IMG/VR virus record: IMGVR_UViG_3300020048_005080
Source: a virus
Strand: one strand, 5' to 3'
Length of the DNA: 64,000 bases
The position numbers were made by a program, and so were the translations under genes. This document shows, piece after piece, positions 1 to 59,738 of the stretch; the first letter of the stretch is position 1; each line of letters opens with the position of its first letter. Below the pieces are notes generated by a model. It saw only the letters and a program-made list of their open reading frames with translations. It had not been told where the DNA came from and ran no database searches.

Positions 1-957
1 TTAATTCTCTACCAATCTGTTCTTTTGCTTGTTCAATATGATTTGAATATAAATGTGTATCACCCAAATTACCAATCAATTCATCAGGAACCATATTAAC
101 TTCTTTTGAAATAATTTCAATTAGTAAACCATAAGAAGCAATGTTGAATGGTAAACCTAAGAATGTATCTACACTTCGTTGATTCCACATTAAAGAGATT
201 GCTCTAGTTGGAACATTGTTCTCGTTCATTTCCTGTTCAATATGATCATGGTGCATATGAGAACCTATTTTATTTCCATACCAATTAAATCGTTCACTCT
301 CACTCAACTCTCTTGTATAAACTTGAAATCCATAATGACAAGGTGGAAGAACCATTTGGTCTAATTCTCCAACATTCCAAGCATTAACCATTAATCGTCT
401 TGAGTCTGGATTTGTTTTAAGGTCGTTGATTAGGTTCGCGATTTGGTCATAATTATGAGGCATCCATCCTTTACTTTTATCAAAATATGTTTCCCAACTT
501 CTCCATTGCTTACCATATACTGGACCTAAATCACCCCACACTTTAGCAAACTCGTCATCTGTTTTGATTTTATTAATAAATTCTTCTTGTGTTAATATTT
601 TAATATCTTTAAGATACTCATAATATTCATCTTCTGATGAATGTTGTTTTTGTATATTCTTAGCATGTTCCCATCCTTTTAGATAGTTCTTATAAGCATC
701 ACCATCCCAAATATGACAATTGTTATCAACTAAATACTTGATGTTTGTATCACCACGTAGGAACCATAACAATTCTGTTGTAATTGTTTTGAATGGCATT
801 TTTTTGGTTGTAAGCAGTGGAAACCCATCTGACATATTGTGTCTGATTTGTCTTCCAAATACTGAAAGTGTACCTGTACCTGTTCTATCTTGTTTGGTTA
901 CTCCATTATCTAAGATGTCTTGGAGTAATGCTGTGTATTGTTTATCTAATTTATTCA
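1..957 (-). CDS. thyA: thymidylate synthase (complete; stop at window edge)
   Basis: The reverse-strand translation starts MNKLDKQYTALLQDILDNGVTKQDRTGTGTLSVFGRQIRHNM, continues through FPLLTTKKMPFKTITTELLWFLRGDTNI and LPPCHYGFQVY, and ends at the TAA at 1-3. These are the classic ThyA motifs. The ORF is absent from the supplied track because it touches the window edge. Confidence 0.9.
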
Positions 958-5293: not shown

Positions 5294-5311
5294 CGGATTA
5301 TATATCCGAAT

Positions 5312-8362: not shown

Positions 8363-8366
8363 AATT

Positions 8367-8627: not shown

Positions 8628-8628
8628 A

Positions 8629-8964: not shown

Positions 8965-8979
8965 TGATAGTGGTTTAAA

Positions 8980-13939: not shown

Positions 13940-14347
13940 ATGGAAAAAATAGCAAAACAGGTTATTGTGATCCGAAAGGATCTTAACATGAGAAAAGGAA
14001 AGATGGTAGCACAAGGTGCTCACGCATCTATGGCAGCAGTACTTGATCAAATGGTTATAAGAAATTGTCCTACAGGAATTCAGGAAAAAACTCTCTCACT
14101 AGAAAGTGGAACACCGATGGAATCTTGGATTAACGGTCTATTCACTAAAGTTTGTGTTTCTGTAGATTCTGAATCGGAATTAATGGAGATATATGAAAAG
14201 GCTAAAGGAGCAGGACTTATTGCATCTATAATCACTGATGCTGGCCTTACTGAATTTGCTGGAGTTCCAACAAAAACATGTATTGCAATTGGACCAAATT
14301 GGTCAGAAGAAGTTAACGAAATAACAGGACATTTAAAACTATTATAA
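13940..14347 (+). CDS. peptidyl-tRNA hydrolase, PTH2 family
   Basis: KQVIVIRKDLNMRKGKMVAQGAHAS and the C-terminus GLIASIITDAGLTEFAGVPTKTCIAIGP...TGHLKLL closely parallel archaeal/eukaryotic PTH2. Confidence 0.8.
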   Translation: MEKIAKQVIVIRKDLNMRKGKMVAQGAHASMAAVLDQMVIRNCPTGIQEKTLSLESGTPMESWINGLFTKVCVSVDSESELMEIYEKAKGAGLIASIITDAGLTEFAGVPTKTCIAIGPNWSEEVNEITGHLKLL

Positions 14348-15534
14348 TGTTACAAGAATTTTTAGATCTTATAGAAAGCAAGTCTCCAGGAGCACAGCCT
14401 CTTCTTATTGTTAAGAGAGGATCGCAGGCTTATGGTACTGCCATTCCCACATCAGATATTGATTATGCTGGAGTTTATATCCAACATATTGATAATATAT
14501 TGGGCTATGGCTACAAAGAGCAGATCAATGATGATAAGAATGACACTGTTTTTTATGAGATTAAAAGATTCTTAGATCTTGTATCTACAAATAACCCGAC
14601 TATTTTAGAGCTCTTAAACACACCAGAAGACTGCATTCTATATAAACACCCATTGATAGGTGAGATACTTCAGCACAGAGACAAATTCATCACTAAAAAG
14701 TGTTCTAATTCATTTGCTGGGTATGCTATTCAACAGATTAAGAAGGCAAAAGGACAGGACAAGAAACAAAACTGGGAGAAAGACAAAGTAACACGTAAAG
14801 ACGTTCTAGACTTTTGCTATGTTATAAAAGGAGAAAAATCTATGCCTTGGAAAGTTTGGAGCGAAGCCCGTTACGAAGAGAAATTTGTTGGTGTTGTAAA
14901 TTTACCTAATGCAAGGGATGTTTATGCTGTTTATTATGATACTGATTCTCACCTTTGCTTTTCTGAATCAATTCCGGAAGGTTCTAGAAATGTATATAAA
15001 AATAATCGAAAAGAATTAGGACTTGTTATGGGTCTAGGCTATAAAGGTCTAGTTAAGTCGGGTGAAGGTGCTAACGTTGCTGAATCCAACCAATTGAGAC
15101 TTTCAAGTATACCCAAAGGAGAAACCCCTATATGTAATATCATATACAATAAAGATGGTTACACTGCACATTGTAAAGATTATAGAGAATACCAAGAATG
15201 GTTAGATAATCGAAATGAACAGAGATGGACTGATGTTAAGACCCACGATCAGAAGATTGATGGTAAAAATATGATGCACTGTCGTAGACTCCTAGAAATG
15301 GCTAAAGAAATTGCTGAAGGTAAAGGCATTCTTGTAAGAAGAGAAAATGCTCAGGAGCTATTAGCAATTAGAAGAGGAGAGGTTGATCTACAAAGTCTAA
15401 TTGATAGAGCTGAAAATGACATCGTAGAAATTGATAGATTATTTAAAGAATCAGATCTTCCAGAATCGGTTGATCTTGGCTTTATTAATGATTTACTTGT
15501 TTCAGTAAGAAAAGAATTTTACGGATTAGCATAA
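14347..15534 (+). CDS. Pol-beta superfamily nucleotidyltransferase (GS-x9-DxD)
   Basis: RGSQAYGTAIPTSDIDYAGVY is the minimal nucleotidyltransferase signature. I cannot assign the subfamily, which could be RNA-repair associated, OAS-like or CD-NTase-like. Confidence 0.55.
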   Translation: MLQEFLDLIESKSPGAQPLLIVKRGSQAYGTAIPTSDIDYAGVYIQHIDNILGYGYKEQINDDKNDTVFYEIKRFLDLVSTNNPTILELLNTPEDCILYKHPLIGEILQHRDKFITKKCSNSFAGYAIQQIKKAKGQDKKQNWEKDKVTRKDVLDFCYVIKGEKSMPWKVWSEARYEEKFVGVVNLPNARDVYAVYYDTDSHLCFSESIPEGSRNVYKNNRKELGLVMGLGYKGLVKSGEGANVAESNQLRLSSIPKGETPICNIIYNKDGYTAHCKDYREYQEWLDNRNEQRWTDVKTHDQKIDGKNMMHCRRLLEMAKEIAEGKGILVRRENAQELLAIRRGEVDLQSLIDRAENDIVEIDRLFKESDLPESVDLGFINDLLVSVRKEFYGLA

Positions 15535-18815: not shown

Positions 18816-19130
18816 ATGAGTAAAAAAGTTTATCTTATCAAAGGTGCATTAGTCGATACGGAAGGAAAAAAAGAATGGATAGAATCAATAACAGCTTCTA
18901 AAGAAAGAGCAAATAAAATAAAAGCTCAATTGAATCGTTCATTAGAGGATGAGATTATCGTATCAAAAGAAATATTTGATAAGTACACTAAAGAGGGTTC
19001 AGAAGAATTAGAATGGGGTAAAATGGAATTTCACACTGATAATATGACAGATGACGAATTCGAAAAGTTCTGTATTTATAGATACGGAACTAAGATGCCA
19101 TTTAAAATAGAAGTATCAGATCTTGTCTAG
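18816..19130 (+). CDS. hypothetical protein
   Basis: 104-aa ORF. Confidence 0.45.
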   Translation: MSKKVYLIKGALVDTEGKKEWIESITASKERANKIKAQLNRSLEDEIIVSKEIFDKYTKEGSEELEWGKMEFHTDNMTDDEFEKFCIYRYGTKMPFKIEVSDLV

Positions 19131-20002
19131 ATACTTCCTTTTAAATTTCTTCTACTAACAATAGCTTTTATTCTCCTTTCAGCTTTATTAGATACACCTC
19201 TAGCCCATTCAGCGGTTCTTTCAAACGATTCCCCAATTTGTCTAAAAGATTGGGGTTCTTTATTTTCATCTAATCCGTATTTAAGTATAGTGATTTGTCT
19301 TTCCATTGGTTTGAGCTCGGATAATATACTCATTATAGATTTTTTTAAATCCTCATTTATTATATTACTGTCTGTGCTTGTTTCAGATTCTATCCAATTG
19401 ATAGGACTAAAAGAATCATCATCACTAGCATTTGTGCTACTTTCTAAAGGAATCGATCTTGGTGTATTTTTAATAGTTTCTATAGCTGATGCTGATAATT
19501 GAATATCCGTGTTCTCTTCTATTATTAATAACATTTCATCAATCGAAGGTTCTCTTCCGTGATAAGAAATAAAGCTTTCTTCCAGAGTTTGGTATTGTCT
19601 TAATTGTTGTGTGATATTAGTAGGGATTCTAACAGATCTTGAATTATTGTTCAGATACAGAAATATATTTTTTCTGATATGCCATACAGCATAACTGATA
19701 AATTTAAAACCTGTAGACGGATCGAAAGTTTCTATAGCTTCTACTAGACCTTTATTACCTTCAGATATTAGATCCTCTAAAGGATTTTGTTGTGAAGCAT
19801 AAGCTTTAGCAACAGATACAACAAATCTTAGATTTGATTTTAATATAAGCTCTTTAGCTTTAAGATCTCCATTTTTTGATTTAACTGCTAATTCAGCTTC
19901 TTTCTCAGGACTTAATATTTCATACTTACTTATTTCAGTGAAATATCTAGATATATTATCGTTAGTATTTGTAATTCTATTGATAATCTTAAATTCCCTC
20001 AT
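19127..20002 (-). CDS. RNA polymerase sigma-70 family factor (divergent)
   Basis: Region 2 is LRFVVSVAKAYASQQNPLEDLISEGNKGLVEAIETFDPSTGFKFISYAVWHIRKNI. Region 4 is the helix-turn-helix SFRQIGESFERTAEWARGVSNKAERRIK. Confidence 0.75.
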   Translation of the reverse strand: MREFKIINRITNTNDNISRYFTEISKYEILSPEKEAELAVKSKNGDLKAKELILKSNLRFVVSVAKAYASQQNPLEDLISEGNKGLVEAIETFDPSTGFKFISYAVWHIRKNIFLYLNNNSRSVRIPTNITQQLRQYQTLEESFISYHGREPSIDEMLLIIEENTDIQLSASAIETIKNTPRSIPLESSTNASDDDSFSPINWIESETSTDSNIINEDLKKSIMSILSELKPMERQITILKYGLDENKEPQSFRQIGESFERTAEWARGVSNKAERRIKAIVSRRNLKGSI

Positions 20003-20657: not shown

Positions 20658-22184
20658 ATGATAAATCCAGCTCTGCTAACAGACGGGTATAAAACTGGGC
20701 ATCACCAGCAATATCCCAAGGGAACGACATTAGTCTATTCCAATTTTACACCAAGAAGCAACAAGTACGCACCTAAGGGATGTGATATGGTAGTTTCTTT
20801 CGGACAACAATTAATCATGAAGCAAATTCACGAGAGTTTTAGAAAAGATTTCTTTGATCAACCAAAAGAAGCAGTATGTAAAGAGATTAGAGAGGAGCTC
20901 TCTTTATACCTAGGTGTAGATTATGACACAAGTCATTTCGAAGCTCTTCATGATCTTGGACATCTTCCTATTAAAGTTAAAGCATTACCAGAAGGCACAT
21001 TGGTTCCTATTAAAGTTCCAGTTTTAACTATCTACAATACAAACCCAGATTTTTACTGGATAACAAATTATTTGGAAACCCTAGTTTCTAATCTTCTTTG
21101 GAAACCAATAACCTCAGCAACTATTGCATTCCAATACAAAAGAGTACTTACAGAATGGGCTCTTAAAACAAATCAAGAAGCTAAAGAATTTGTTTACTGG
21201 CAAGGACACGATTTCTCTATGAGAGGTTTAGATTCTATTGATGCTGTAGTTTCATCTGGACTTGGTCACTTAACATCATTCTACGGTACGGATTCTCTTC
21301 CAGCAATTTACGGAGCACGTAAATTCTACGGAGCAGAAGGATTTGTTGGAGGCTCAGTTCCTGCAACAGAACACTCAGTTATGTGTGCAGGTGGTAAAGA
21401 AGACGAGATTGATACGTTCAGAAGATTACTTGAAACATATCCTAAAGGAATTCTTTCTGTAGTATCTGATACATGGGATTTATGGAAAGTGTGTACAGAA
21501 CACGTAGTCACTTTGAAAGATGAAATTCTTGCTCGTGATGGTAAATTAGTTATACGTCCTGACTCAGGAGATCCGGTTGATATTCTTTGTGGGTGGGGTG
21601 GCTTTGATCCTGAAGGTGAAAGCGAAGAAGCTAAAAATGAGCCACAAAATAAAGGAGTAATTGAATTACTTTGGGACGTATTTGGCGGAACAGTCAATGC
21701 TCAAGGTTACAAAGTACTTGACCCACACATCGGAGCTATCTATGGGGATTCAATCACAATCGACAGAGCAAATGAAATCTGCGCAAGACTAGAAGCAAAA
21801 GGATTCGCATCAACAAATGTTGTATTAGGGGTTGGTTCTTTCACTTATCAATATAACACTCGTGACACATTTGGTTTTGCAATGAAAGCAACGTATGTCG
21901 AAGTAAATAAACCAAAATTCGAAGGCGATTTCAATCCAGAAGGACGTGAGATCTTTAAAGATCCTATCACAGATGATGGAACAAAAAAATCTGCAACGGG
22001 ATTATTAAGTGTTCACAGTCATGATGGCGAATTGGTTTTAATTGACAAATGTACATGGGAAGGTGAAGAGGTTAGTTTATTACAAACAATTTACCAAGAC
22101 GGTATTTTTCACAATCCAGTTACTCTAAATGAAATCAGAGAGAAATTAGATAAAGCTATACATTTACAATTCGAATTAGCTTAA
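20658..22184 (+). CDS. nadV: nicotinamide phosphoribosyltransferase (NAMPT family)
   Basis: N-terminus MINPALLTDGYKTGHHQQYPKGT. The 508-aa length and colinear conservation are typical of NadV/NAMPT. Confidence 0.85.
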   Translation: MINPALLTDGYKTGHHQQYPKGTTLVYSNFTPRSNKYAPKGCDMVVSFGQQLIMKQIHESFRKDFFDQPKEAVCKEIREELSLYLGVDYDTSHFEALHDLGHLPIKVKALPEGTLVPIKVPVLTIYNTNPDFYWITNYLETLVSNLLWKPITSATIAFQYKRVLTEWALKTNQEAKEFVYWQGHDFSMRGLDSIDAVVSSGLGHLTSFYGTDSLPAIYGARKFYGAEGFVGGSVPATEHSVMCAGGKEDEIDTFRRLLETYPKGILSVVSDTWDLWKVCTEHVVTLKDEILARDGKLVIRPDSGDPVDILCGWGGFDPEGESEEAKNEPQNKGVIELLWDVFGGTVNAQGYKVLDPHIGAIYGDSITIDRANEICARLEAKGFASTNVVLGVGSFTYQYNTRDTFGFAMKATYVEVNKPKFEGDFNPEGREIFKDPITDDGTKKSATGLLSVHSHDGELVLIDKCTWEGEEVSLLQTIYQDGIFHNPVTLNEIREKLDKAIHLQFELA

Positions 22185-24164: not shown

Positions 24165-24653
24165 ATGAAAGTACAAATTTTAAAACCTACTGACGGTGAC
24201 CCTGTGCTTAACAAGGTCACCGTTTTTCTTGCTGGTTCTATAGAAATGGGAGCAGCAGAGGATTGGCAGACTATTGTTTCTAACAAGATGGAAGAATTGG
24301 AAATGCCTATTACTATATTTAATCCAAGAAGAGATTCATGGGATTCATCTTGGGAACAGAGAGAATCTAATCCACAATTTAGCCAACAGGTTAACTGGGA
24401 GATGGATAGACTTAATGAATGTGATATTATATTTATGTACTTCTCCCCTGGTACAAAATCCCCTATCTCTCTATTAGAATTAGGTCTTCATGCAGATTCA
24501 AGAAAAATGATCGTGTGTTGTCCTGATGAATTTTGGAGAAAGGGCAACGTTGAAATTGTTTGCTCTAGACACAATATACCTTTACATGACAATCTAGAAC
24601 ACGCTATGATGTGTTTGTCAGCTGTAACATCATCAGAATTAATTAATAAATAA
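24165..24653 (+). CDS. 2'-deoxynucleoside 5'-phosphate N-hydrolase / nucleoside deoxyribosyltransferase-like (DNPH1/Rcl fold)
   Basis: VFLAGSIEMGAAEDWQ, FNPRRDSWDS, ECDIIF, and SLLELG. It is a paralog of 1919..2275. Confidence 0.6.
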   Translation: MKVQILKPTDGDPVLNKVTVFLAGSIEMGAAEDWQTIVSNKMEELEMPITIFNPRRDSWDSSWEQRESNPQFSQQVNWEMDRLNECDIIFMYFSPGTKSPISLLELGLHADSRKMIVCCPDEFWRKGNVEIVCSRHNIPLHDNLEHAMMCLSAVTSSELINK

Positions 24654-24660
24654 AAAATAT

Positions 24661-25551
24661 ATGGATTTTTTAGAAACAGCAAAGAACTTAGAAACCACGC
24701 ACAGTCACGGTACAATTACATATTTAGATTTTAATCTAGATCCTAGTACATCAGATAAGGATTATCCACATTTGAAATTAAACACTAAGACTAAACATAT
24801 AGAATTACAGACATATCAGGTAAAGTCTAGAATTGACGAAGATGTTATAGCTGATTTAAAATTATTTCATGCTGTAGATGGAGAGGGAATGGTAAGGTCC
24901 GTATTAGAGTCTGAATCATTAATTCAAAGACAGAAGAATCTATTAAATATCTATAATATTTTAGGAGAAGAAACAGCAGGAGAGATTCTAACAGGATGGA
25001 AAAAAACTATAAAAAAAATATTTCCAAAAATTAGATATAAAACATACTTAATAAATGACTCAATAGAGGGATCAAAATTATTAATATATAGTATTATAAG
25101 TAGATCACATTTAATTGCAGCTAGAAGCAGAAGAGGACCTGCAAATTTTATTATATGTAACGGACAGGTTGGTTCTTTAATACAGGATCACCCATCTTTT
25201 GTTTATATAAATAATAATATTCCAGTCAGTTTGTCCGATAAAATTAGATCTATAGGAAGTATAGCAGGAAATATAGAAGTATTTATTAATCCTTTCCAAA
25301 GATTTACTGACAACAATATTATAATAGGAAGAAAAACACAGGAGCATGAGCCAGGAGTTTATATTGTGGAAAATAAAGGTTCCAAAGAGATTATGGAAAC
25401 TGCTATGTGGGAAGAATCAAAAATGATTAAATCAAAATCACTTCGTGAAAAATTAGCTTTTGTAGATACTGAAAATGCAAGCAGAAATTTTGTAAAATTC
25501 GAAGTGGAATTTACTAAAAAACCACTATGGAGAAGAATGTTATTCGTATAA
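24661..25551 (+). CDS. hypothetical protein
   Basis: 296-aa ORF. Confidence 0.5.
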   Translation: MDFLETAKNLETTHSHGTITYLDFNLDPSTSDKDYPHLKLNTKTKHIELQTYQVKSRIDEDVIADLKLFHAVDGEGMVRSVLESESLIQRQKNLLNIYNILGEETAGEILTGWKKTIKKIFPKIRYKTYLINDSIEGSKLLIYSIISRSHLIAARSRRGPANFIICNGQVGSLIQDHPSFVYINNNIPVSLSDKIRSIGSIAGNIEVFINPFQRFTDNNIIIGRKTQEHEPGVYIVENKGSKEIMETAMWEESKMIKSKSLREKLAFVDTENASRNFVKFEVEFTKKPLWRRMLFV

Positions 25552-27184: not shown

Positions 27185-27572
27185 TTCTTATCACCGATCC
27201 CTGTCCGTGCATAACTTGAATAATGTAAGATCCCATATAATAAGCTTCTCCCGTGAACATATTCAGATATTTTTCATCTGTACATTCTTTGCAATATTTC
27301 TTTGCGTATCCTAAAGCTATCCATAGAAGAGATTCTCTAGGTTCATATCCTAAAGAATATTCTCTTCTTACGTATTCATCAGAATCGTATTTTTCTATTA
27401 ACTTCTCAAGATAAGCGTCAATATCGGACTCTGCTAATTTTTTGAATTTTTCGATCCATCTATCTTTACGCTCTTCCTCTCTTTTTATTTTGTTTCCAAA
27501 TTCCTCAATGGATTTCTTACCCTCTTCGGTATCTAAAAATTCTCTCAATTTTTCTACCATGCTTTTACTCAT
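27168..27572 (-). CDS. hypothetical protein
   Basis: 134-aa ORF. Confidence 0.5.
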   Translation of the reverse strand: MSKSMVEKLREFLDTEEGKKSIEEFGNKIKREEERKDRWIEKFKKLAESDIDAYLEKLIEKYDSDEYVRREYSLGYEPRESLLWIALGYAKKYCKECTDEKYLNMFTGEAYYMGSYIIQVMHGQGSVIRIDKML

Positions 27573-28303
27573 AACTCAAATGTTGGTTTTAACCATATGC
27601 CCCTGCTGAAAACTAATTTAGTAAATCCAGGTAATGTATTTTCAACTTCTCTAAAAAGATCTAAAGATGCAACAGTGTCGTGCTTCATCATCTTAAAAAC
27701 TTCCTCTCTAATTCTTTCTGCAGAAACAACCTTCTCAAGCTTTTCTAAAATTTCAGGTTGTGTCATTGCAGAAATAATATCGTAATTTATTAGAAATCCC
27801 TTAGTAACCGCAAATCTTAAGGCTCTTAAAAACCTTAAAGGATCATCCATCATAGTCTGCTCAGCTGGAAGTGGTGTTCTTAATATTTTTCTTTCTAAAT
27901 CTTCTTTACCTCCAAATAGATCTATGATGTTTCCATCATCATCCTCTGCCATAGCATTTAGAGTAAAGTCTCTCCTGATAAGATCATCTTCCAAAGTTCC
28001 AAGAACCAAAATTGGCTGTCTTGTCCCCTGTACATATCCAATCTCTTTTCTTGCCATTACAAAATCTGCAACTAGTCCTTCGTTTTTATGTCCTTTTGGA
28101 AACTTAGCTCTGATAGTAAAACAATCAGGAGTAGACAAGAATATACTAAATGCCTCTTGGGCTAGCCAATTTGTCATTGATTGAAATCCTTCTTCTACTG
28201 TCTGATCTAGATTATCTAGAATAAATGTGAAATCGATATCTTTAGATTCTACGCCTAATAGCTTATCCCTTACACATCCTCCAACTTTAAATATCTGTGG
28301 CAT
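27569..28303 (-). CDS. tRNA nucleotidyltransferase (CCA-adding / poly(A) polymerase head domain, class II), minimal
   Basis: VGGCVRDKLLGVESKDIDFTF matches GGxVRD...DxD, and RRDFTLNAMA is the class II NTase motif. Confidence 0.8.
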   Translation of the reverse strand: MPQIFKVGGCVRDKLLGVESKDIDFTFILDNLDQTVEEGFQSMTNWLAQEAFSIFLSTPDCFTIRAKFPKGHKNEGLVADFVMARKEIGYVQGTRQPILVLGTLEDDLIRRDFTLNAMAEDDDGNIIDLFGGKEDLERKILRTPLPAEQTMMDDPLRFLRALRFAVTKGFLINYDIISAMTQPEILEKLEKVVSAERIREEVFKMMKHDTVASLDLFREVENTLPGFTKLVFSRGIWLKPTFEL

Positions 28304-29538: not shown

Positions 29539-30327
29539 TTAAATAAGCCCTTTAATCTCTGCTAGAATCTCTCTAAATCGAGCTAATTCTTTAATCCCTT
29601 TGTGATAAGCTAGACCTTCCTCTAATAGATCATACGTTTTAACCACCGTACTTCCTTCGTTATCTTTGTTTGCTAGAACTAACACAGTGTCAGCAATAGC
29701 ACAAGATGTTTCAATATCATGTGATACGACAACCAAAGTGTTCATTTCATCTAAGTTTGATACTTTAATAAGAAGTTCAACAACTTTATCTTTCATGATT
29801 GTGTCCAATCCAGAGAATGGTTCGTCCAAAAGAATAAATTTGTTACCTGCAAGAACTTGTTGTAAAATAGACACCCTCTGCTTTTGTCCTCCTGATAAAT
29901 CACAAGGGTATTTACTAAGCTGATCTGTTAATTCAAAATGCTCAGCATATTGTTTGATTGTCTCTATTTTCTCTTTACCCTTCATACTAGTTAAAGCTAA
30001 TGAAAGATTCGTCATAATAGTTCGATGATTAAATAGGTGATAATCCTGTGGTACCACACCCATTTCTCCAGTTTTAACCGGGTGTTGATCTGCTCCAACT
30101 TTAATATCTCCCGAATTGGCTTTGTTGTATCCAGATAGAAGTTTAAATAAAGATGTTTTACCACATCCGCTTCTTCCACATATTGCTACGATTTGCCCTT
30201 GTGTCATACCAGGTCTTGTAACATTATGGATCTGCATATTGATATCTTTTAGTATTGGCTTATCGTCATAAGTGAGACTCACATTATTGACAGATAAGAT
30301 CAATTCTTCTTTTTTGTAGTCAATCAT
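29539..30327 (-). CDS. ABC transporter ATP-binding protein (NitT/TauT-like)
   Basis: Walker A is GRSGCGKTS, the ABC signature is LSGGQKQRV, and Walker B is ILLDEPFSGLD. Confidence 0.85.
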   Translation of the reverse strand: MIDYKKEELILSVNNVSLTYDDKPILKDINMQIHNVTRPGMTQGQIVAICGRSGCGKTSLFKLLSGYNKANSGDIKVGADQHPVKTGEMGVVPQDYHLFNHRTIMTNLSLALTSMKGKEKIETIKQYAEHFELTDQLSKYPCDLSGGQKQRVSILQQVLAGNKFILLDEPFSGLDTIMKDKVVELLIKVSNLDEMNTLVVVSHDIETSCAIADTVLVLANKDNEGSTVVKTYDLLEEGLAYHKGIKELARFREILAEIKGLI

Positions 30328-31136
30328 TTTCTAAGAATTTTATTGATCCATAATTTATTATAACGAGTGGTATCTGTATAAGGGAAGATCCAAACTTTCA
30401 TTAAATCGAATAAGTAATCGAATACGATACCTATAATAAGAATCACAATTAATACACCAAACACATCGTCCATTTTTAAGTACTTATTAGATTTGATCAT
30501 CATAGTACCTAAACCTCCTTCAGACATACAAATCCCTTCCACTGAAGTTATCATCATCCAAGCAATTGCAAAGTTCTGTCTAATAACTTCCAGAACTAAA
30601 TGAAGCTTACCTTTAATAACCACTTCATATAATGTCTTCCATGTGCTGAATTTAAGGGAGTAACAAAGTTCGTATTCTTTCTTAGGTATATCTCCAATGT
30701 AAGCTAAAAGAGATGTAACAAAGTATGGTATAATACCAAATAAAAGCAGTGAGATCTTAATATCGCTTCCATCCTTGATGAGTATAGTAAAGACGAATAA
30801 AAGTCCAGTATACGTCAAGAAACGAAGCTTAGAAACGAATATTGCTATTCCTTTAAAAGCTGGAATTAATGCAAGATAAACTATAGCTAAAGAAATAGTT
30901 ATAGATATCACCATTCCTTTTAGTATTAGTCCTAGTGTTGCGAAGAAGTTATCTAAGAATCCAGGTCCTGTAATAATCTTCCATGATGAATTTAAAATTC
31001 CTGAAGGTTTAGGAAGTAACTCATTTCCGTTTACCTGTGCTATAAATAGAAATATAGCTATTTGAATTATCCCGATGATAAGCATAGTTCTTACACTTAC
31101 GCTCTCTAGGAATCTTGGTGAGAATATTTTCTTCAT
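30324..31136 (-). CDS. ABC transporter permease
   Basis: Six predicted TM helices. It is overlap-coupled to the ATPase. Confidence 0.7.
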   Translation of the reverse strand: MKKIFSPRFLESVSVRTMLIIGIIQIAIFLFIAQVNGNELLPKPSGILNSSWKIITGPGFLDNFFATLGLILKGMVISITISLAIVYLALIPAFKGIAIFVSKLRFLTYTGLLFVFTILIKDGSDIKISLLLFGIIPYFVTSLLAYIGDIPKKEYELCYSLKFSTWKTLYEVVIKGKLHLVLEVIRQNFAIAWMMITSVEGICMSEGGLGTMMIKSNKYLKMDDVFGVLIVILIIGIVFDYLFDLMKVWIFPYTDTTRYNKLWINKILRK

Positions 31137-31192: not shown

Positions 31193-32968
31193 TTATTGTC
31201 CTAAGATTGAAATCTCTACTCTTCGGTTTTGTGCTCTTCCTGCTGCATTTGAATTGCTAGCAATTGGATTTGAAGATCCGTATCCTTTAGATTGTAGACG
31301 TGTAGAAGTCATACCTTTTTGCTTTAAGTAATTAAGTACTGATAAAGCTCTTTGTTCAGATAAAGGAAGGTTGATAGACTCACTACCTACATTATCTGTA
31401 TAACCTCCGATAAGTACTTTAGTACCATCTGCTGTTACTGCGTCTTGAAAAATCTCATCTAATACACTCATAGAAGATGCAGAGATTTGAGCAGATCCTG
31501 TGACGAACTCGATGTGATAAGATTTATTACCAATCTTATTTGTCATCTTAGTGTTCGTATAGTCTGTCAAATTGATCTTACCTTGTAATAGATCTGGGTT
31601 GTTTGCTACAACTGACATTAGGATCGATTTATCAAATGCTTTAGAGTAATCTAAGTATGATGGTAAATCGCTAGAGTAATACTTAGACTGTAATGTACCG
31701 AATGTATTATAGATTGCTCTGTAGATGTCCGTGTTGTCAGTTTTACCTTCTACATAAATACCTAACATATTCGCCATATCACCCAAGTTAAATACCATCG
31801 AACCTCCTAAGTGTGTGTCATCGTCAGTTTTAATACCGTTGTAGTATGTGTACCAATATTGACCATTTTGTTCGTCGTAAATTTTAGCATTCAATCCGCA
31901 AGCAAATCTTTTAGCATCATCGAATGTACGGATTTGATCCCCTGCAATAGCAGTGCATTTAGTGATTTCCTCTGCTGCTGTACGGTGATCGTTTAACCAC
32001 TTACGACATGTGATAGTGATGTTAGGCATAATTGAAGAATATTCTTTAGTAGAGATAATAGTTACTCCGCCACGTCCATTCTTAGCATTAACGTCACCAG
32101 GTGTCCAAGTAGCAACTAAGTCCGCTCTTACTGTAGTGTCACGTCCAATAGTTTTACCGTCTTTCATGATCTTACGTGTTTCTCTATATCCTGAGTTGTA
32201 TTTAACTACAGCATCTAAGAAATCTTTACAGTACATGAAGTTAAGAGCATCAGGATCATATGTTGTTTCGTCTACGTTAACTTTTACACCATTGTCTCCT
32301 GCTAATTTAAGAGCTAAGTCTAAGTCTCCATCCATACGATAACCAACGATTGTTGCTCCTTTTAGATTTTGCTTATTGTTCTTGTATTTGATATCTCCAA
32401 TAACTTGGTCTTCTCCATAAGATTTACCAGTTGTTAAGAAGGCTACCGGCTGATATTCAGGACCTAAATCTTTCACTGCATTTGAAATACCTGTAATATA
32501 AGAAGGAATTCCTGATCCCATAAAGGTGATGAATACACCTGGTGTGTTAGGATTGCTTTTATACTCCTTACAGAATTTAACTAATTCAGCGCAAGATTGA
32601 GCACAGTCGTCTTGACGGATAAGGCTGATATCCAAACCTGAGCGATCAAATAAAGATCCTTTTGTTGTTTGTTTACCTCCATTTGCATAAGCAATACCGT
32701 TTTGTGATTGCCAAGCCATGATGTACCAATTAACTTTAGTACCTCCGTTGTTTGCAGGTTCAGCTGAAGGAAAGTTCAACTTGATAGCTGCTTTTCCAGA
32801 TAATGAAGCTTCGGGAGCGTCTGGAATTGCCACTTGTCCGAATGTTTTTGAGTCTTCTACTTCGTGTGGTCTGTTGTCCCACCATAACACTTTAAGTGCG
32901 AAGATTACTGCTACAGCGAATAGTCCAATAACGACTTTACCGCTTGTTTTTAACTTTACATTTGCCAT
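31193..32968 (-). CDS. periplasmic substrate-binding-like protein fused to a C-terminal OmpA/MotB peptidoglycan-binding domain
   Basis: N-terminal signal anchor and an SBP-like body. The C-terminal OmpA signature is DNVGSESINLPLSEQRALSVLNYL...RRVEISI. Confidence 0.7.
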   Translation of the reverse strand: MANVKLKTSGKVVIGLFAVAVIFALKVLWWDNRPHEVEDSKTFGQVAIPDAPEASLSGKAAIKLNFPSAEPANNGGTKVNWYIMAWQSQNGIAYANGGKQTTKGSLFDRSGLDISLIRQDDCAQSCAELVKFCKEYKSNPNTPGVFITFMGSGIPSYITGISNAVKDLGPEYQPVAFLTTGKSYGEDQVIGDIKYKNNKQNLKGATIVGYRMDGDLDLALKLAGDNGVKVNVDETTYDPDALNFMYCKDFLDAVVKYNSGYRETRKIMKDGKTIGRDTTVRADLVATWTPGDVNAKNGRGGVTIISTKEYSSIMPNITITCRKWLNDHRTAAEEITKCTAIAGDQIRTFDDAKRFACGLNAKIYDEQNGQYWYTYYNGIKTDDDTHLGGSMVFNLGDMANMLGIYVEGKTDNTDIYRAIYNTFGTLQSKYYSSDLPSYLDYSKAFDKSILMSVVANNPDLLQGKINLTDYTNTKMTNKIGNKSYHIEFVTGSAQISASSMSVLDEIFQDAVTADGTKVLIGGYTDNVGSESINLPLSEQRALSVLNYLKQKGMTSTRLQSKGYGSSNPIASNSNAAGRAQNRRVEISILGQ

Positions 32969-40255: not shown

Positions 40256-40686
40256 TACTTATAAATCTTAAATGGATTTGTTCTATTTTTGTATCCTGGA
40301 AAATCATTTTTGAAATCCTCTAATCTTGGTTCAATATCATCTGATTTTATAATCCAAAATTGAGCACCTGCTTTAACTGCTTTAGCTTGTTCTTCTGGTT
40401 CATTAGAGGAAGATATTATTCCAATAACAACATTATTACCATACTCAAAATTAATCTTACGGATTAATTCTATACCATCATAGGAAGATCCAATTATGTT
40501 TAGGTCTACAAATACACATTCAGGTTTTCCGTCTGGATTTTTTTGCCATTCTGCAAAAAGTCTAGCAGCTTCATCTGAGCTATCAAGACTTTCTAAAGAA
40601 AGTGAAATATCAAGAAGACTGCAAGCATCTTCAAATACAAGATGAAATAGACTTTCGTCATCTACTAATAAAATTGAATCAATCAT
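40255..40686 (-). CDS. response regulator receiver (REC-only) protein
   Basis: ILLVDDE and FVDLNI are the phospho-acceptor context. The protein is CheY-like in size. Confidence 0.7.
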   Translation of the reverse strand: MIDSILLVDDESLFHLVFEDACSLLDISLSLESLDSSDEAARLFAEWQKNPDGKPECVFVDLNIIGSSYDGIELIRKINFEYGNNVVIGIISSSNEPEEQAKAVKAGAQFWIIKSDDIEPRLEDFKNDFPGYKNRTNPFKIYK

Positions 40687-42814
40687 TTTTTAAGTTTATT
40701 TTTATTTGACTTCCTTCAACTGGAAGTTTATCACAAGAAACACTAAACCCATGTTCTTCTAATATTGCTATACATATATTTAATCCCAGACCAGTGCCAG
40801 ACTCTTTCTGTCCTTCCTTACGAGTATATGGTTGCGAAAGTAATTTGAACTCTTCTGAGCTTAATCCTCTTCCGTTATCCTCTACATATAATGTATCATC
40901 TATTCTATAGATCTTTACAATCTTATTATTGCTATCATTATATTTTAGGCCATTTCTGATTAAATTATCCAACGCTGTACAGAATAGTGCTTCGTTAACA
41001 CTTAATTCTCCTAAATCTGATAGATCAACCTGAGGTCTATATGCAGTTGCTGATAGATAATCCTCAAGAATATTTTTCAAATTACATTCTTCTCTATTAA
41101 GTACTACGTCTTTCTTTACAAGATTTGTAAACTCGTAAACTCCTTTATAAACTTTTTGTGTGTGACGAAGTCCTTCTTTAATCATTTTAATAGGGGCTTC
41201 AATCTTAAGTTCCTTTATTTGCTCCTCAGATAATCTTCTATCTAAAGAGCTTAGTCCTCTAGGCATGTATGTGTTAATGCCACTGTGCATATCATGTCTA
41301 AGTATTTTAGCAGCATGCTCAAGATACGTATTTTTCTTTTCTAGTTCTTTCTGTTGATTATAACTTTCAGTAATATCGGTAGCAATTTTCATCACTCGAT
41401 ATGGTTTTTCATCAGGTCCTATGATAGGATTGTATGTTGCTTGGAGATAAATTAATGCCCCATTTTTTCTTCTTCTTGTAACTTCGCCTCTGAAGAATTT
41501 TCCGTCGCTTAGTGATTTCCAAAAATCTTGATATTCTTTGGTATTCTTTTCTGAATTTTCTATAAATATGCTATGGTGTTTTCCTATAATTTCTTCTTGT
41601 GAATATCCTAATATGCTCAAAAATGAATCATTTGCAAATTTTATATTACCATCTAAATCAAATTCAATAACAGCATTTGATCTATTAATAGCATTCATTC
41701 TATTGGATATTTCAACCTCTTTTCTTTTTAACTCAGTTACATCTTGGCGTATAGAAGAGAATCCACAAAGTTTATTATTTTCGTCAAATCTAGCTTTAAT
41801 AAAAGTATCTACATAATATAGACTTCCGTCTTTAGCTCTATTTGTACAAACAGCATTCCATATTTTTTTTTCGGCTACAACTGTTTTGTACATATCACTC
41901 CAAAACTCTTTAGGATGTGTACCTGAGTTTACTATATTATGATCCCTTCCTATAACTTCATCTAAAGAATATCCAGAAACATCAGTGAATCTTTGATTTA
42001 CATAAGTTATTTTTCCTTTCTCGTCAGCAACTGAGATAATAGAAGAAGCATCAAGAAATTTTTCATTCTCAATTATTTCGTGAGATAATTTATTAGATTC
42101 TTTAACTGAATACCCAAACGAGTATAATGAAGAAAGCATCTGTGCAAAATCTACCTCGTCTTTATCCCATATTCTTGGTGAAAGACTTTCAATACATATA
42201 ACTCCTATTACTTCCCCTTTATACCAGATAGGAACATCGAGCATTGATTTTACACCTAATGGTTTAAGATATCCTTCTAAAAAACAAGAAGTTGCTGGAT
42301 GTGTTTCTGCATTATCTGCAATGATTATTGGATTATCTTTTATTGCTTCAAAATATGGAAAAAAGTCTTTCTCAAATAGCTCTATATCTTTATAAAAATT
42401 ATCCTCCGATCTAATATAAAGATTCTGACAGATAATAGACGTACGATCGTTATTATAAAGCCAAAAAGAACATCTATCAGATTCTATAGTATCTGAAACT
42501 TCTTTAGAAAGAATAGCAGATCCTGCTTCTATATTACCAGAAAAAAATACCTCATTATGAGATTGTCTGATTAAAGAGTCCGATAATTTCTTATTGTATT
42601 TTAATTTCTTTTTTTCCTGTCTGCTTTTATTTAAAAATGTTCTTCCTATAAAATATGAAGGGACACAGAAAGAAATAAAACATAGATACTCGATTAAATT
42701 GTAAAAATCTGAGTCTTTAACTATTCCGAATGTGATAGATGTTTTTATCACAAAGAAAAATATCATAATAAGAATAGCGGACGCCGTAGAAAATAATAAT
42801 CCAAATTTTTTCAC
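40679..42814 (-). CDS. sensor histidine kinase with TM, GAF-like and two PAS domains
   Basis: PAS region ITYVNQRFTDVSGYSLDEVIGRDH. H box RHDMHSGI. N box LIRNGLKYN. G boxes DNGRGL and GTGLGLNI. Confidence 0.85.
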   Translation of the reverse strand: MKKFGLLFSTASAILIMIFFFVIKTSITFGIVKDSDFYNLIEYLCFISFCVPSYFIGRTFLNKSRQEKKKLKYNKKLSDSLIRQSHNEVFFSGNIEAGSAILSKEVSDTIESDRCSFWLYNNDRTSIICQNLYIRSEDNFYKDIELFEKDFFPYFEAIKDNPIIIADNAETHPATSCFLEGYLKPLGVKSMLDVPIWYKGEVIGVICIESLSPRIWDKDEVDFAQMLSSLYSFGYSVKESNKLSHEIIENEKFLDASSIISVADEKGKITYVNQRFTDVSGYSLDEVIGRDHNIVNSGTHPKEFWSDMYKTVVAEKKIWNAVCTNRAKDGSLYYVDTFIKARFDENNKLCGFSSIRQDVTELKRKEVEISNRMNAINRSNAVIEFDLDGNIKFANDSFLSILGYSQEEIIGKHHSIFIENSEKNTKEYQDFWKSLSDGKFFRGEVTRRRKNGALIYLQATYNPIIGPDEKPYRVMKIATDITESYNQQKELEKKNTYLEHAAKILRHDMHSGINTYMPRGLSSLDRRLSEEQIKELKIEAPIKMIKEGLRHTQKVYKGVYEFTNLVKKDVVLNREECNLKNILEDYLSATAYRPQVDLSDLGELSVNEALFCTALDNLIRNGLKYNDSNNKIVKIYRIDDTLYVEDNGRGLSSEEFKLLSQPYTRKEGQKESGTGLGLNICIAILEEHGFSVSCDKLPVEGSQIKINLKND

Positions 42815-51949: not shown

Positions 51950-51980
51950 ATAAGGGAGGGTACTTAATGTACCTTCCCTT
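51950..51980 (-). terminator. hairpin terminator
   Basis: AAGGGAGGGTAC-TTAA-TGTACCTTCCCTT followed by TTATTTG. Confidence 0.5.
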
Positions 51981-52961
51981 TTATTTGTCTAATATCCAAG
52001 AAAAGATAAGTGGAGCAACAATAGTTGCATCTGACTCGACAATAAATTTAGGTGTGTTAGTATCCAATTTACCCCAAGTGATCTTTTCATTTGGTACTGC
52101 TCCCGAGTAAGATCCATATGATGTTGTAGAATCTGAAATTTGACAGAAATAAGCCCAGAATGGTACATCTTCCCATTCAAGATCTTGGTACATCATCGGA
52201 ACAACACATATTGGAAAGTCCCCTGCAATACCTCCTCCGATTTGGAAGAATCCTATTCCAGGCTCAGAACAATTGTTTCTGTACCATTCACTAAGGTAAA
52301 CCATATATTCAATACCATTTCTCACCGTATTAGGCTCCAATTCTCCTTTTATAACATAAGAAGCAAAGATATTACCTAATGTGGAATCCTCCCATCCAGG
52401 TACAACCATTGGAAGATTTCTTTCCGCTGCAGCAATCATCCAGGAGTCTTTAGGATCAATCTCATAATATTGCGTAAGAATTCCGCTATTAATTAGCATG
52501 TACATGAATTCATGAGGAAAGTATTTTTTACCCTCGGCTTCCGCTTCTTTCCATAGATCATAAATATAAGATTGTAATCTTCTAAAAGCTTCTTCCTCAG
52601 GAATACAAGTGTCAGTGACTCTATTTAAACCTTGATCTAACAATTCTCTTTCTTGCTCTGGTGTAAGATCCCTATAATTAGGTATTCTTTTATAATGAGA
52701 ATGTGCTACAAGATTCATTAAATCCTCTTCCAAGTTAGCTCCAGTACAAGATATAATATCAACTTTACCAGCTCTAATCATTTCAGCTAAAGAAATACCA
52801 ATCTCTGCTGTACTCATTGCACCAGCAAGAGAAATTAGCATCTTGCCACCTTTATCTATATGTGTCTCGTAACCAATTGCTGCATCCTTTAATGCTGCAG
52901 AATTAAAATGCTTATAATTTCTATTAATAAACATTGATATAGGACCTTTCTTCTTTACCAT
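51981..52961 (-). CDS. deoxyhypusine synthase-like / homospermidine synthase-like enzyme
   Basis: KMLISLAGAMSTAEIG, DIISCTGANLEEDL and EKITWGKLD track the DHS family, which is NAD-dependent. Confidence 0.65.
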   Translation of the reverse strand: MVKKKGPISMFINRNYKHFNSAALKDAAIGYETHIDKGGKMLISLAGAMSTAEIGISLAEMIRAGKVDIISCTGANLEEDLMNLVAHSHYKRIPNYRDLTPEQERELLDQGLNRVTDTCIPEEEAFRRLQSYIYDLWKEAEAEGKKYFPHEFMYMLINSGILTQYYEIDPKDSWMIAAAERNLPMVVPGWEDSTLGNIFASYVIKGELEPNTVRNGIEYMVYLSEWYRNNCSEPGIGFFQIGGGIAGDFPICVVPMMYQDLEWEDVPFWAYFCQISDSTTSYGSYSGAVPNEKITWGKLDTNTPKFIVESDATIVAPLIFSWILDK

Positions 52962-53070
52962 ATTATCTTTATTTAGTTATAGTGAGATTGTATGAAATTA
53001 TTTCGAATATATAATATACAATAATATGTAGTAAATTCTTATATTTACAAAAATACTAATATAAAACCCT

Positions 53071-53292
53071 ATGAAGTCTTACGAAAAACAATTGGAAGAA
53101 TTTGGAAGAGAAATTGCTGACGAGGTTATCTCTAAAGAAAAAGATTACAAATACGAAGCATCTTTAGACCGATACCAAATATCAAGATCCCTATCTTCTA
53201 TATACAGTCAGGATTTAAGAAAAACTACAGAAGATTTAGACAGATCAATAAATAAATCGCTGGCTAGAATGAGAAGCCAGGATCAATACTAA
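53071..53292 (+). CDS. hypothetical protein
   Basis: 73-aa ORF preceded by TTCTTATATTTAC. Confidence 0.35.
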   Translation: MKSYEKQLEEFGREIADEVISKEKDYKYEASLDRYQISRSLSSIYSQDLRKTTEDLDRSINKSLARMRSQDQY

Positions 53293-53597
53293 ATACCTCT
53301 AACTAATCTCACATACAATTCATTAGATTGATCTGTAATGTGTGGTGAATATCCCTTAGATAGATTGTAGTACCATGCTTTAGTACCTGACGAAGATGCT
53401 GACCAATATTTATCAGGTTTAAATCTACCTATTCCTAATTTATCAAAGTCATAAATACTTTTAAATTCAGCTTCTGTTGGTAGTCTCCATCCGTTCCCAC
53501 CTAATGCTTCAAGTTCTCCTGCCACTGAGGTCCATGGCATTTTATTAGGAAGATCTTCTGCCATTATTTCCAATTTATCAAAAATAATATTGTTCAT
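53289..53597 (-). CDS. DUF1566 (Lcl C-terminal)-like protein
   Basis: GWRLPTEAEFKSIYDFDKLG...YWSAS. Confidence 0.45.
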   Translation of the reverse strand: MNNIIFDKLEIMAEDLPNKMPWTSVAGELEALGGNGWRLPTEAEFKSIYDFDKLGIGRFKPDKYWSASSSGTKAWYYNLSKGYSPHITDQSNELYVRLVRGI

Positions 53598-53634
53598 ATA
53601 TCCTATATATTAAAGAATGTATAATATATAATAT

Positions 53635-54150
53635 ATGTTCAAATATATCTCAAAAATTCTAGCACAATTCTCAACGCCACAAAAAATAGTGGCTCTTTCT
53701 ATGCTACTTTTAGCAATAGTAATAATATCCATAGCTCCTTCTATTATTTCTTCTGTAACATTAGATAGAGATGAATTAAATTCGGAAATAAAAAGACAAG
53801 ATACTAAAATAAAAAATCTAGAAATCCATGCAGATTCTTTGGAATATAAGATAAGAAAAAGTGGTATGGAATGTACAAACCAAATAGTTCTTAGAGAAGA
53901 GGAATTCTTAGAAATGTTGGAAAATCTAAAAGGTGACCTTAGAAATCATAATAATATGGAAGATAGAATAGTAAGACTTAATACTGTTTCAAAAGAAAAA
54001 AGAATATACCAAGTTGGAGACTCTTCTGTATCTATGATGATGGTACATGAAGAACCAAGACAAGAAAAAGTAATAATCTATAAAAAACCACAAATCAGTT
54101 CAACTCTATCGTTGATAGATGAGATGAAAAAGAAGATAAAAAAGAATTAA
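53635..54150 (+). CDS. membrane coiled-coil protein
   Basis: N-terminal TM plus a coiled coil. Confidence 0.45.
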   Translation: MFKYISKILAQFSTPQKIVALSMLLLAIVIISIAPSIISSVTLDRDELNSEIKRQDTKIKNLEIHADSLEYKIRKSGMECTNQIVLREEEFLEMLENLKGDLRNHNNMEDRIVRLNTVSKEKRIYQVGDSSVSMMMVHEEPRQEKVIIYKKPQISSTLSLIDEMKKKIKKN

Positions 54151-54522
54151 TTATCTAGGAAAATCTTTCCCTCTAGCAACTACGTGTATTTCGCAATCTT
54201 CGGGTTTAAATAAATCCTTAGTTATCTGTATAGCTCTTTCAACATCAAAATCTTTACAAGAGAATATATCAATGAAGCAATATCCTTTATCTTCGAATGA
54301 ATGAACAGATATATGGCTTTCCGCAATAATAACTATTCCAGTAATTCCTTTATCTTCTGGTACTAATCCTGAATAAGGGAAAACATATGGCTGAGTTATA
54401 GGGGTCATGTGAATTAACTCCGGGAGTGATTTTAAATAATTGAAATGTAAGTTATAATCTGATAATACTTCTTTTGGGCATCCTTTTAAATCGAGTGTAA
54501 TGTGAGGTCCAAATTCTTCCAT
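54151..54522 (-). CDS. speH: S-adenosylmethionine decarboxylase proenzyme, SpeH class (pyruvoyl-dependent)
   Basis: GPHITLDLKGC and IAESHISVHSFEDKGYCFIDIFSC, which holds the ES self-cleavage site and resembles the ESH(I/L)S(V)HTWPE motif. Confidence 0.75.
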   Translation of the reverse strand: MEEFGPHITLDLKGCPKEVLSDYNLHFNYLKSLPELIHMTPITQPYVFPYSGLVPEDKGITGIVIIAESHISVHSFEDKGYCFIDIFSCKDFDVERAIQITKDLFKPEDCEIHVVARGKDFPR

Positions 54523-54572: not shown

Positions 54573-54612
54573 ACAAAAAAAGCCTGTTTTTTAAAACAGG
54601 CTAATATTTTTA
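54573..54612 (-). terminator. rho-independent terminator
   Basis: AGCCTGTTTT-TTAA-AACAGGCT perfect hairpin between an A-run and a T-run. Confidence 0.65.
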
Positions 54613-58871: not shown

Positions 58872-59738
58872 TTACCCCAAGTATGATCTTAGTAATCTGC
58901 TTCTTGTAGAAACTCTAAGTTTCTTAATTCCCTTCTCCTTTATCTGTCTTGCACGTTCTCTAGATATCTCTAATTTCTGTCCAATTTCGTCTAATGATCT
59001 TGGACAAGACTGATCGATACCATAGAACATTTTAATCACATTTTTAGAGCGTATGTCTAGTGTATTAAGACTTCTTTCTATTTCTGTTCTTAAAGATTCG
59101 TGAATTAATAAATTGTCTGCAGATGGAGAATCGGGATTAATTAAAACCTCAATCATTGCTGAAGCTTCAGAATCCCCGCCTAACGGTGCATCAAAGGATG
59201 TGTGTTTTAAAGATGTCTTGACAGTTTCTGAAATTTTATATTCAGGAATATCCAAAGCTTCTGATATCTCTTCGTGAGTTGGTATTCTTTCTAGATCCTG
59301 CTCTAATTTTCCTATAGTTCTATTAATTTTACTAAGAACCCCAACCTGATTTAAAGGTATACGAATAACCCTAGATTTTTCAGAAAGAGCTTCTAATATA
59401 CTCTGTCTAATCCACCAAACTGCATACGATATAAATTTGAATCCTCTTGTTTCGTCAAATTTTCTAGCTGCTTTTATTAGACCTAGATTACCCTCGTTTA
59501 TAAGATCTATTAGTGGTAATCCTTGATTCTGGTATTGCTTAGCAACAGATACTACGAATCTTAGATTTGCTTTAGTTAATTTATCTAAAGCAGCTTGATC
59601 TCCTTCTCTAATTCTTCTTGCTAATCTAGTTTCTTCCTCTATTGTAATCAGAGCCTCCTTAGAAATATCACTAAGATACTTTTCCAATGATTTATCTGCA
59701 CGGTTAGTAATAGATTGGGTAATCTTAAGTTGTCTCAT
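58872..59738 (-). CDS. rpoD: RNA polymerase sigma factor, near copy of the Bacteroidota primary sigma A
   Basis: MRQLKITQSITNR, LTKANLRFVVSVAKQYQNQGLPLIDLINEGNLGLIKAARKFDETRGFKFISYAVWWIRQSI, and the terminal LRSYLG. The short 288-aa form is characteristic of Bacteroidota. Confidence 0.9.
   Translation of the reverse strand: MRQLKITQSITNRADKSLEKYLSDISKEALITIEEETRLARRIREGDQAALDKLTKANLRFVVSVAKQYQNQGLPLIDLINEGNLGLIKAARKFDETRGFKFISYAVWWIRQSILEALSEKSRVIRIPLNQVGVLSKINRTIGKLEQDLERIPTHEEISEALDIPEYKISETVKTSLKHTSFDAPLGGDSEASAMIEVLINPDSPSADNLLIHESLRTEIERSLNTLDIRSKNVIKMFYGIDQSCPRSLDEIGQKLEISRERARQIKEKGIKKLRVSTRSRLLRSYLG

Follow-up and report, generated by a model that had tools for sequence, protein, structure and literature searches.

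A large-phage locus that probably pairs a pyruvoyl arginine decarboxylase with the agmatine-coupling enzyme SpeY

We analyzed a 64,000-nucleotide stretch of the IMG/VR virus record IMGVR_UViG_3300020048_005080 (hereafter the window, meaning the whole stretch), in which two genes of polyamine enzyme families lie close together on the minus strand between positions 51,981 and 54,522. The gene at 51981..52961 encodes a 326-amino-acid protein that matches the deoxyhypusine synthase (DHS) family over its full length (Pfam DS, PF01916; E 8.7e-40), and the gene at 54151..54522 encodes a 123-amino-acid proenzyme with a full-length match to the S-adenosylmethionine decarboxylase (AdoMetDC) family (Pfam AdoMet_dc, PF02675; E 1.4e-26). 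A first-pass annotation had read these two open reading frames (ORFs) as a SpeH-type AdoMetDC and a deoxyhypusine- or homospermidine-synthase-like enzyme; the profile searches bear out its coordinates, its two families and a phage polyamine module built from them, whereas the specific chemistry that it assigned is probably wrong. We propose, with a probability of roughly 0.7, that the two gene products would instead act in succession in the agmatine-dependent pathway to homospermidine, from arginine to agmatine (by a SpeDA-like decarboxylase) and from agmatine to N1,N9-bis(guanidino)homospermidine (G44G; by a SpeY-like enzyme), with the pathway finished by the host.

The two genes are separated by 1.19 kb, in agreement with the spacing of 1.2 kb on one strand reported earlier, and the DUF1566-like gene that had been noted between them is present as a member of the family now called Lcl_C (53289..53597, minus strand; 102 amino acids, Pfam Lcl_C E 4.7e-11), with its position conserved in the related phage loci L001, L002, L009 and L010. 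Left out of that earlier description were two ORFs on the opposite strand, one small (53071..53292, plus strand; 73 amino acids) and one with an N-terminal hydrophobic segment that abuts the end of the SpeDA-like gene (53635..54150, plus strand; 171 amino acids). Neither has a family match in Pfam and NCBIfam profile searches; relatives carry counterparts of about 71-75 amino acids for the first and an ORF of 157-172 amino acids in the slot of the second.

The smaller enzyme retains the self-processing machinery of its family. Residues S69, H74 and C89 align with S63, H68 and C83 of the T. maritima AdoMetDC (PDB 1TLU), so that the pyruvoyl "ESH" cleavage context recognized in the first-pass annotation (here AESH) is real, with self-cleavage predicted between E68 and S69 (codons 54316..54321) and H74 and C89 as the catalytic residues. 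Class 1b AdoMetDC homologs comprise AdoMetDC itself (SpeD) together with arginine decarboxylases (SpeDA) and ornithine decarboxylases (SpeDC) (Li et al. 2023, PNAS, JBC). The full-length identity of the window protein is about 57% with SpeD2 of Vampirovibrio chlorellavorus (WP_181385235), compared with 24-30% for six validated AdoMetDCs (those of T. maritima, V. chlorellavorus SpeD1 and phages S-PM2, phiN3, P2559S and phiYS40). In V. chlorellavorus NCIMB 11383, SpeD2 is an arginine decarboxylase (ADC) with a kcat/Km of 780 M-1 s-1 and no AdoMetDC activity, and it fails to restore spermidine synthesis, whereas SpeD1 restores it (PMC10407285). The NCBIfam equivalog for AdoMetDC, TIGR03330, scores the window protein at 72.4 bits, just under its cut-off of 75.65.

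Relatives of the small protein in cellular genomes, gathered by scanning a single genome for each GTDB species, point in the same direction. The 80 closest loci encode proteins 51-68% identical to it and come from Planctomycetia, Omnitrophota, Sericytochromatia, Vampirovibrionales, Woesearchaeota, Calditrichia and others, with almost no Bacteroidota. An agmatinase homolog stands directly downstream, starting within about 200 bp, in 52 of the 80; SpeY is additionally present in 19, and the order speD1-speD2-speE-speB known from V. chlorellavorus recurs in 14. The majority of speDA genes were previously found to cluster with speY (Li et al.). In a neighbor-joining tree the phage clade is nested within the SpeDA clade and all validated AdoMetDCs fall outside. 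We also contrasted, position by position, the 80 SpeDA-clade proteins with 31 AdoMetDCs (25 SpeD1 paralogs of the same genomes and a reference set of six, of which five are functionally validated). This contrast yielded 30 SpeDA-clade-specific positions, among them a six-residue insertion, and the window protein carries the SpeDA state at 29 of them while carrying the AdoMetDC state at just one of the 16 AdoMetDC-specific positions.

From these comparisons of identity, phylogeny and residues, the 123-amino-acid protein is most likely a pyruvoyl L-arginine decarboxylase (SpeDA) with an AdoMetDC fold; the SpeH-type label should be revised, and an "S-adenosylmethionine decarboxylase" annotation on such phage genes is probably wrong. 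A bona fide AdoMetDC is disfavored by the sub-threshold TIGR03330 score, the single AdoMetDC-specific position and the absence of a proline (T. maritima P71) called invariant in bona fide AdoMetDCs (Li et al.), in place of which the window protein has Glu77. SpeDC was rejected because the four residues diagnostic of it near the processing site (Gln, Thr, Phe and Tyr, in an E-T-S context) are absent: the window motif reads V-I-I-A-E-S...H-S-F...S-C-K-D-F against Q-x-I-E-T-S...H-F...S-C-N-Y-Y in SpeDC. We looked for a published list of the T. maritima AdoMetDC substrate-binding residues and found none.

The deoxyhypusine-synthase fold proposed for the larger protein is upheld by the Pfam DS match and by a conserved W-G-K motif, whose catalytic lysine K298 (codon 52068..52070) aligns with K329 of human DHS. 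Its signature GGGIAGDF is of the Bacteroidota type and differs from the GGGVxKHH of DHS proper, with Asp replacing the His aligned to human H288, and its score of 105 bits against the best NCBIfam DHS equivalog (cut-off 434) leaves it far under all DHS equivalog cut-offs. On these two grounds we rejected a deoxyhypusine synthase proper, of the kind that modifies eIF5A or aIF5A. A bacterial homospermidine synthase (HSS, of the HSS/CANSDH fold) was rejected as well, DS being the sole Pfam match and HSS not being homologous to DHS (Li et al. JBC 2026).

A database search returned thousands of relatives of the DHS-like protein. Those at 81-95% identity lie on contigs like the related phage contigs, and those at 77-80% belong to Bacteroidota (Weeksellaceae, Saprospiraceae and Rikenellaceae). 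Bacteroidota SpeY proteins from different orders are 78-80% identical to the window protein and 78-84% identical to one another, which places the phage protein within the normal divergence of the family. In Weeksellaceae the SpeY gene overlaps the end of a gene for a 477-amino-acid ornithine/arginine decarboxylase of alanine-racemase (AR) fold, an ADC-SpeY cluster, and in Saprospiraceae it closes a cluster of a decarboxylase (466 amino acids), an Arginase-family protein (298 amino acids) and the DS protein. An equivalent cluster of ancestral AR-fold ADC, SpeB and SpeY has been described in the Bacteroidota species Winogradskyella algicola, whose SpeY, like those of four other phyla, converts agmatine to G44G by condensing two agmatines, with no aminobutyl transfer from spermidine or putrescine; a ureohydrolase turns G44G into homospermidine, and human and plant DHS form no G44G (Li et al. 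JBC 2026, PMC13625781). We consider the 326-amino-acid protein an ortholog of bacterial SpeY and probably an NAD-dependent agmatine-coupling enzyme. To judge by its closest cellular relatives, the phage SpeY looks host-derived, from Bacteroidota, and the decarboxylase looks to come from an unrelated lineage.

Taken in sequence, the two predicted activities suggest a short pathway. The 123-amino-acid proenzyme would cleave itself between Glu68 and Ser69 to form its pyruvoyl cofactor and would then decarboxylate L-arginine, rather than AdoMet, to agmatine; the 326-amino-acid SpeY, using NAD+ and Lys298, would couple two agmatines to G44G; and a SpeB-type G44G ureohydrolase of the host would take off the two urea groups to give homospermidine. 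We assign the last step to the host because the phage window encodes no ureohydrolase, and such an enzyme is to be expected there since the clusters of Bacteroidota with orthologous SpeY also include an Arginase-family gene. The likely benefit would be a larger supply of homospermidine while a large genome is being replicated, translated and packaged, which agrees with the known dependence of phages on polyamines.

Conservation of the gene pair is consistent with such a role. Both genes stand 1.2-3 kb apart, in mostly conserved synteny, in related contigs of 115-344 kb, and the order SpeD-like gene, Lcl_C, DS recurs in metagenome contigs of 133, 176 and 344 kb with the same flanking genes for a sigma factor, ClpP, a helicase, a phosphoesterase and a kinase. 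Retention of the SpeDA-like gene with SpeY across related phages fits a shared pathway. Among 21 IMG/VR loci with SpeY, six have a SpeDA-like gene within 3 kb and three have an Arginase-family gene directly upstream of SpeY. This combination of SpeDA with a Bacteroidota-type SpeY was not seen in cellular genomes among the loci examined. Searches for an agmatinase, a spermidine synthase and an AR-fold ADC that depends on pyridoxal 5'-phosphate (PLP) found none, either across the 64 kb of the window or in the eight loci of related phages that were covered (tblastn, E<=1).

The Arginase-family genes that adjoin a Bacteroidota-type SpeY lie within 4887-9693 of locus L109, 5171-6969 of L104 and 1337-3408 of L112 (contigs of 130, 40 and 80 kb), and a gene of the agmatine-deiminase family (PAD_porph) lies 1.7 kb downstream in L109, with Toprim and radical-SAM genes nearby. 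Judged by this gene order, and presuming the viral status that IMG/VR gives these stretches, some phages may encode the ureohydrolase step too. A further record, MW495066 ("Microcystis phage MaAM05," 274 kb; locus L011), holds a speH_2-speH_1-speE-speB block at 240743-257063 that is 96-98% identical in protein to V. chlorellavorus NCIMB 11383 (L061), with purL, purF and guaD beside it; by these matches the record seems to be DNA of Vampirovibrio and not of a phage.

We compared the locus with the closest characterized systems. The bacterial and archaeal speDA-speB-speY clusters (Capsulimonas corticalis, Ca. Sericytochromatia, Ca. Marinimicrobia and Woesearchaeota; Li et al. JBC 2023, 2026) use the same two enzyme families with, by inference, the same chemistry, and the window's SpeDA-like protein lies within their clade at 51-68% identity; unlike them, the phage locus is carried by a virus, lacks speB, keeps its two genes non-adjacent with opposite-strand ORFs between, and has a Bacteroidota-type SpeY that is just 21-25% identical to the SpeY of those clusters. 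The Bacteroidota ADC-SpeB-SpeY clusters (of the W. algicola type, with the Saprospiraceae and Weeksellaceae examples above) share an orthologous SpeY (78-80%) and the same expected product, but their decarboxylase is a PLP-dependent, alanine-racemase-fold protein of 466-477 amino acids, whereas the phage decarboxylase is an unrelated pyruvoyl enzyme of 123 amino acids, about a quarter of that size and apparently of non-Bacteroidota origin. V. chlorellavorus SpeD2, which shares about 57% identity and the same clade-specific residues with the window protein, there feeds a speB-speE-speD1 spermidine pathway and not SpeY.

Viruses, too, offer partial precedents. SpeDA of pelagiphage HTVC201P and other phage SpeD homologs (AdoMetDC, ADC and ornithine decarboxylase, or ODC; Li et al. 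PNAS 2023) are likewise phage-borne class 1b homologs, and some of them have switched to arginine decarboxylase. The HTVC201P SpeDA falls with the SpeDC (ODC) clade and represents an emergence distinct from that of the window protein, and none of these phages was reported with SpeY. The viral HSS enzymes of chlorovirus PBCV-1, Ralstonia phage phiRSL1 and Achromobacter phage Motura also serve to make homospermidine; they differ in having an unrelated fold and a putrescine substrate, where the pathway proposed here would use agmatine and a DHS-fold enzyme.

Several points weigh against the proposed pathway. The functions of both proteins are read from sequence similarity, from neighboring genes and from assays published for homologs, and substrate specificity is evolutionarily labile in this family, SpeDA activity having arisen several times among AdoMetDCs. 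Bootstrap support for the split of the SpeDA-like clade from all validated AdoMetDCs is modest at 59%, rising to 83% once the long-branch phiN3 protein, whose processing site is D-S-H in place of E-S-H, is allowed inside that clade. The diagnostic proline is a weak discriminator of AdoMetDC from ADC, since the validated AdoMetDCs of phiN3 (L115, 289-705) and phiYS40 (L117, 142-576) also lack it and a homolog from a 735-kb megaphage inside the SpeDA clade keeps it. W. algicola SpeY is likened to the phage protein by cluster type, the sequence identities having been taken with other Bacteroidota SpeY. The two genes are not an operon, as the opposite-strand ORFs in the gap part them. Our search for partner genes covered 64 kb of the genome, and speB or speE could lie elsewhere. 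Finally, a SpeDA-like gene occurs in very large contigs without SpeY in its flanks: one at 8001-8378 of L006 (a 527-kb contig) is 78% identical to that of the window with no SpeY within the flanks, and one at 8001-8360 of L012 (LR756501, a 735-kb uncultured phage) is 57% identical to it, with no SpeY match in the whole LR756501 record.

The most probable alternative, though we consider it unlikely, follows the earlier reading: a true SpeH/SpeD AdoMetDC and a deoxyhypusine/homospermidine synthase acting on spermidine or putrescine, whose aminopropyl and aminobutyl transfers would yield spermidine and homospermidine. Both Pfam families match, the Ser, His and Cys catalytic residues are the same as in AdoMetDC, several phages encode validated AdoMetDCs, one of them on a Bacteroidota host (PMC9992855), and the validated phiN3 AdoMetDC at times groups with the SpeDA-like clade in bootstraps. 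This reading must nevertheless accommodate an identity of 24-30% to validated AdoMetDCs against about 57% to a validated ADC, a count of 29/30 SpeDA-specific against 1/16 AdoMetDC-specific positions, and a score under the TIGR03330 cut-off. Neither the window nor the phage loci examined contain a spermidine synthase or any other aminopropyltransferase, and every assayed bacterial SpeY uses agmatine, which it couples, whereas eukaryotic DHS made no G44G (PMC13625781); the two genes are therefore probably not an aminopropyl donor and an aminobutyl transferase.

A different view accepts the arginine-to-G44G chemistry and moves the end point. The ureohydrolase would have been left out deliberately, and G44G or agmatine would be the functional product, serving as a stronger DNA-condensing counter-ion in the capsid alongside a jumbo genome, as a drain on host arginine, or as an effector that disturbs host arginine and polyamine signaling, without feeding homospermidine. 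We regard this as quite improbable, even though no ureohydrolase is encoded in the window or the related phage loci, a related SpeDA-like gene stands alone in the 527-kb and 735-kb contigs, and G44G accumulates in E. coli that expresses SpeY and lacks SpeB (PMC13625781). An Arginase-family gene is clustered with orthologous SpeY in Bacteroidota, and the pairing of SpeY with an Arginase-family gene in other IMG/VR contigs points to homospermidine as the goal.

Two further proposals of the first-pass annotation found nothing in their support beyond family membership and co-occurrence. That the small enzyme destroys S-adenosylmethionine (SAM) against methylation-dependent host defenses, with the DHS-like gene unrelated to it, is very doubtful: the protein does belong to the AdoMet_dc family and phages attack SAM by other enzymes, but clade and residue evidence favors arginine as the substrate, and SAM depletion would leave the lasting linkage to SpeY across related phages unexplained. 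Least credible is hypermodification of DNA, in which a polyamine or aminoalkyl product would be placed on thymidine or cytidine in the style of putrescinyl-thymine, for although ThyA-like and nucleoside deoxyribosyltransferase-like genes do share the 64-kb window, their distances from the pair are 51 kb and 27 kb, the ThyA-like protein looks ordinary (the part that aligns with E. coli ThyA is 40% identical to it), the ORFs scanned include no family of hydroxymethyl-dUMP kinases or transferases, and both enzymes of the pair have close orthologs in ordinary polyamine clusters. The co-occurring ThyA is confirmed as a ThyA-like ORF at 5..943 (minus strand), cut by the window edge; of two DNPH1-like genes noted with it, one was recovered as a Nuc_deoxyri_tr2 gene (24165..24653, plus strand) and the second was not located.

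Two hairpins flank the pair. A hairpin with a 12-bp stem directly follows the SpeY stop codon (51952..51980; from a consensus scan only, called on the plus strand with a palindromic stem) and is a possible terminator. A second hairpin lies 59 bp upstream of the SpeDA-like start (54581..54602); its stem is 9 bp long, and both strands have T-runs. By its position it may terminate the upstream gene, which would make the SpeDA-like gene a unit of its own. A scan for sigma-70 promoters gave 27 sites, against 28.3 in shuffled sequence, and thus no excess.

The wider window has a GC content of 28-40% and encodes a Gp23-like head protein, a Dda/PIF1-type helicase, a GH19 lysin with a peptidoglycan-binding domain, an RNA ligase, NAMPT, a PRPP-synthetase-like protein, two sigma-70 homologs and a GAF-PAS histidine kinase, the majority of the remaining ORFs having no family match. 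Relatives with 87-94% SpeY identity are IMG/VR viral contigs of 29-207 kb, in which the order SpeD-like gene, Lcl_C, DS is likewise present. Judged by its gene content and relatives, the window belongs to a lineage of large phages, with a genome that is likely well over 100 kb (>150 kb) and, from the affinities of its SpeY, likely a Bacteroidota host.

Other genes of the window are of interest in their own right. An ABC transporter ATPase (29539-30327, minus strand) and a BPD_transp_1 permease (30324-31136, minus strand) make unusual phage cargo, followed by a 591-amino-acid protein with a C-terminal OmpA domain (31193-32968, minus strand). We rejected a polyamine-specific (PotA/B) transporter, as the NCBIfam matches are all far under cut-off and the permease is Tau/Sao-like. 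The histidine kinase is a 711-amino-acid GAF-PAS-PAS-HATPase sensor (40679-42814, minus strand) that is conserved in relatives, as is one of the two sigma-70-family proteins (58872-59738 and 19127-20002, both on the minus strand). NAMPT (20658-22184, plus strand) and the ribose-phosphate diphosphokinase-like gene (8980-9900, minus strand) look like an NAD+ salvage pair; we note this beside the NAD dependence of SpeY and draw no link. A set resembling RNA repair (5312-7334, minus strand; 14347-15534, plus strand; 27569-28303, minus strand) comprises an AAA ATPase, an RNA ligase with a PHA02142 OB domain, an RlaP nucleotidyltransferase and a PolyA_pol/CCA-adding-type head domain, and no tRNA genes were found within the 64-kb window. 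The Gp23-like protein (24661-25551, plus strand; 296 amino acids) matches only positions 107-314 of the 376 in the T4 Gp23 major head protein profile; its length falls short of a complete major capsid protein, and it could be a paralog or a derivative of decoration type.

The locus, together with no fewer than 20 other IMG/VR contigs, suggests that phages carry SpeY. A 2023 survey of virus-encoded polyamine metabolism detected no SpeY homolog in any virus or phage, our tblastn search of the SpeY protein against 50,697 GenBank phage records gave no match, and we found no report in the searchable literature of a phage SpeY or of a viral route from arginine to G44G. The interest of the finding is mainly to specialists in polyamine and phage metabolism, and it overturns nothing. 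SpeY is here paired with a miniature pyruvoyl arginine decarboxylase of different evolutionary origin, and the pair would provide a shortcut of two steps, neither dependent on PLP, into the homospermidine route by way of agmatine, a route defined only in 2026. If the proposed activities are true, the pair would represent a third viral way to a spermidine analogue, would indicate that phages build chimeric pathways from different donors, and would make it tractable to ask why additional polyamine is needed by large phages whose hosts use homospermidine.

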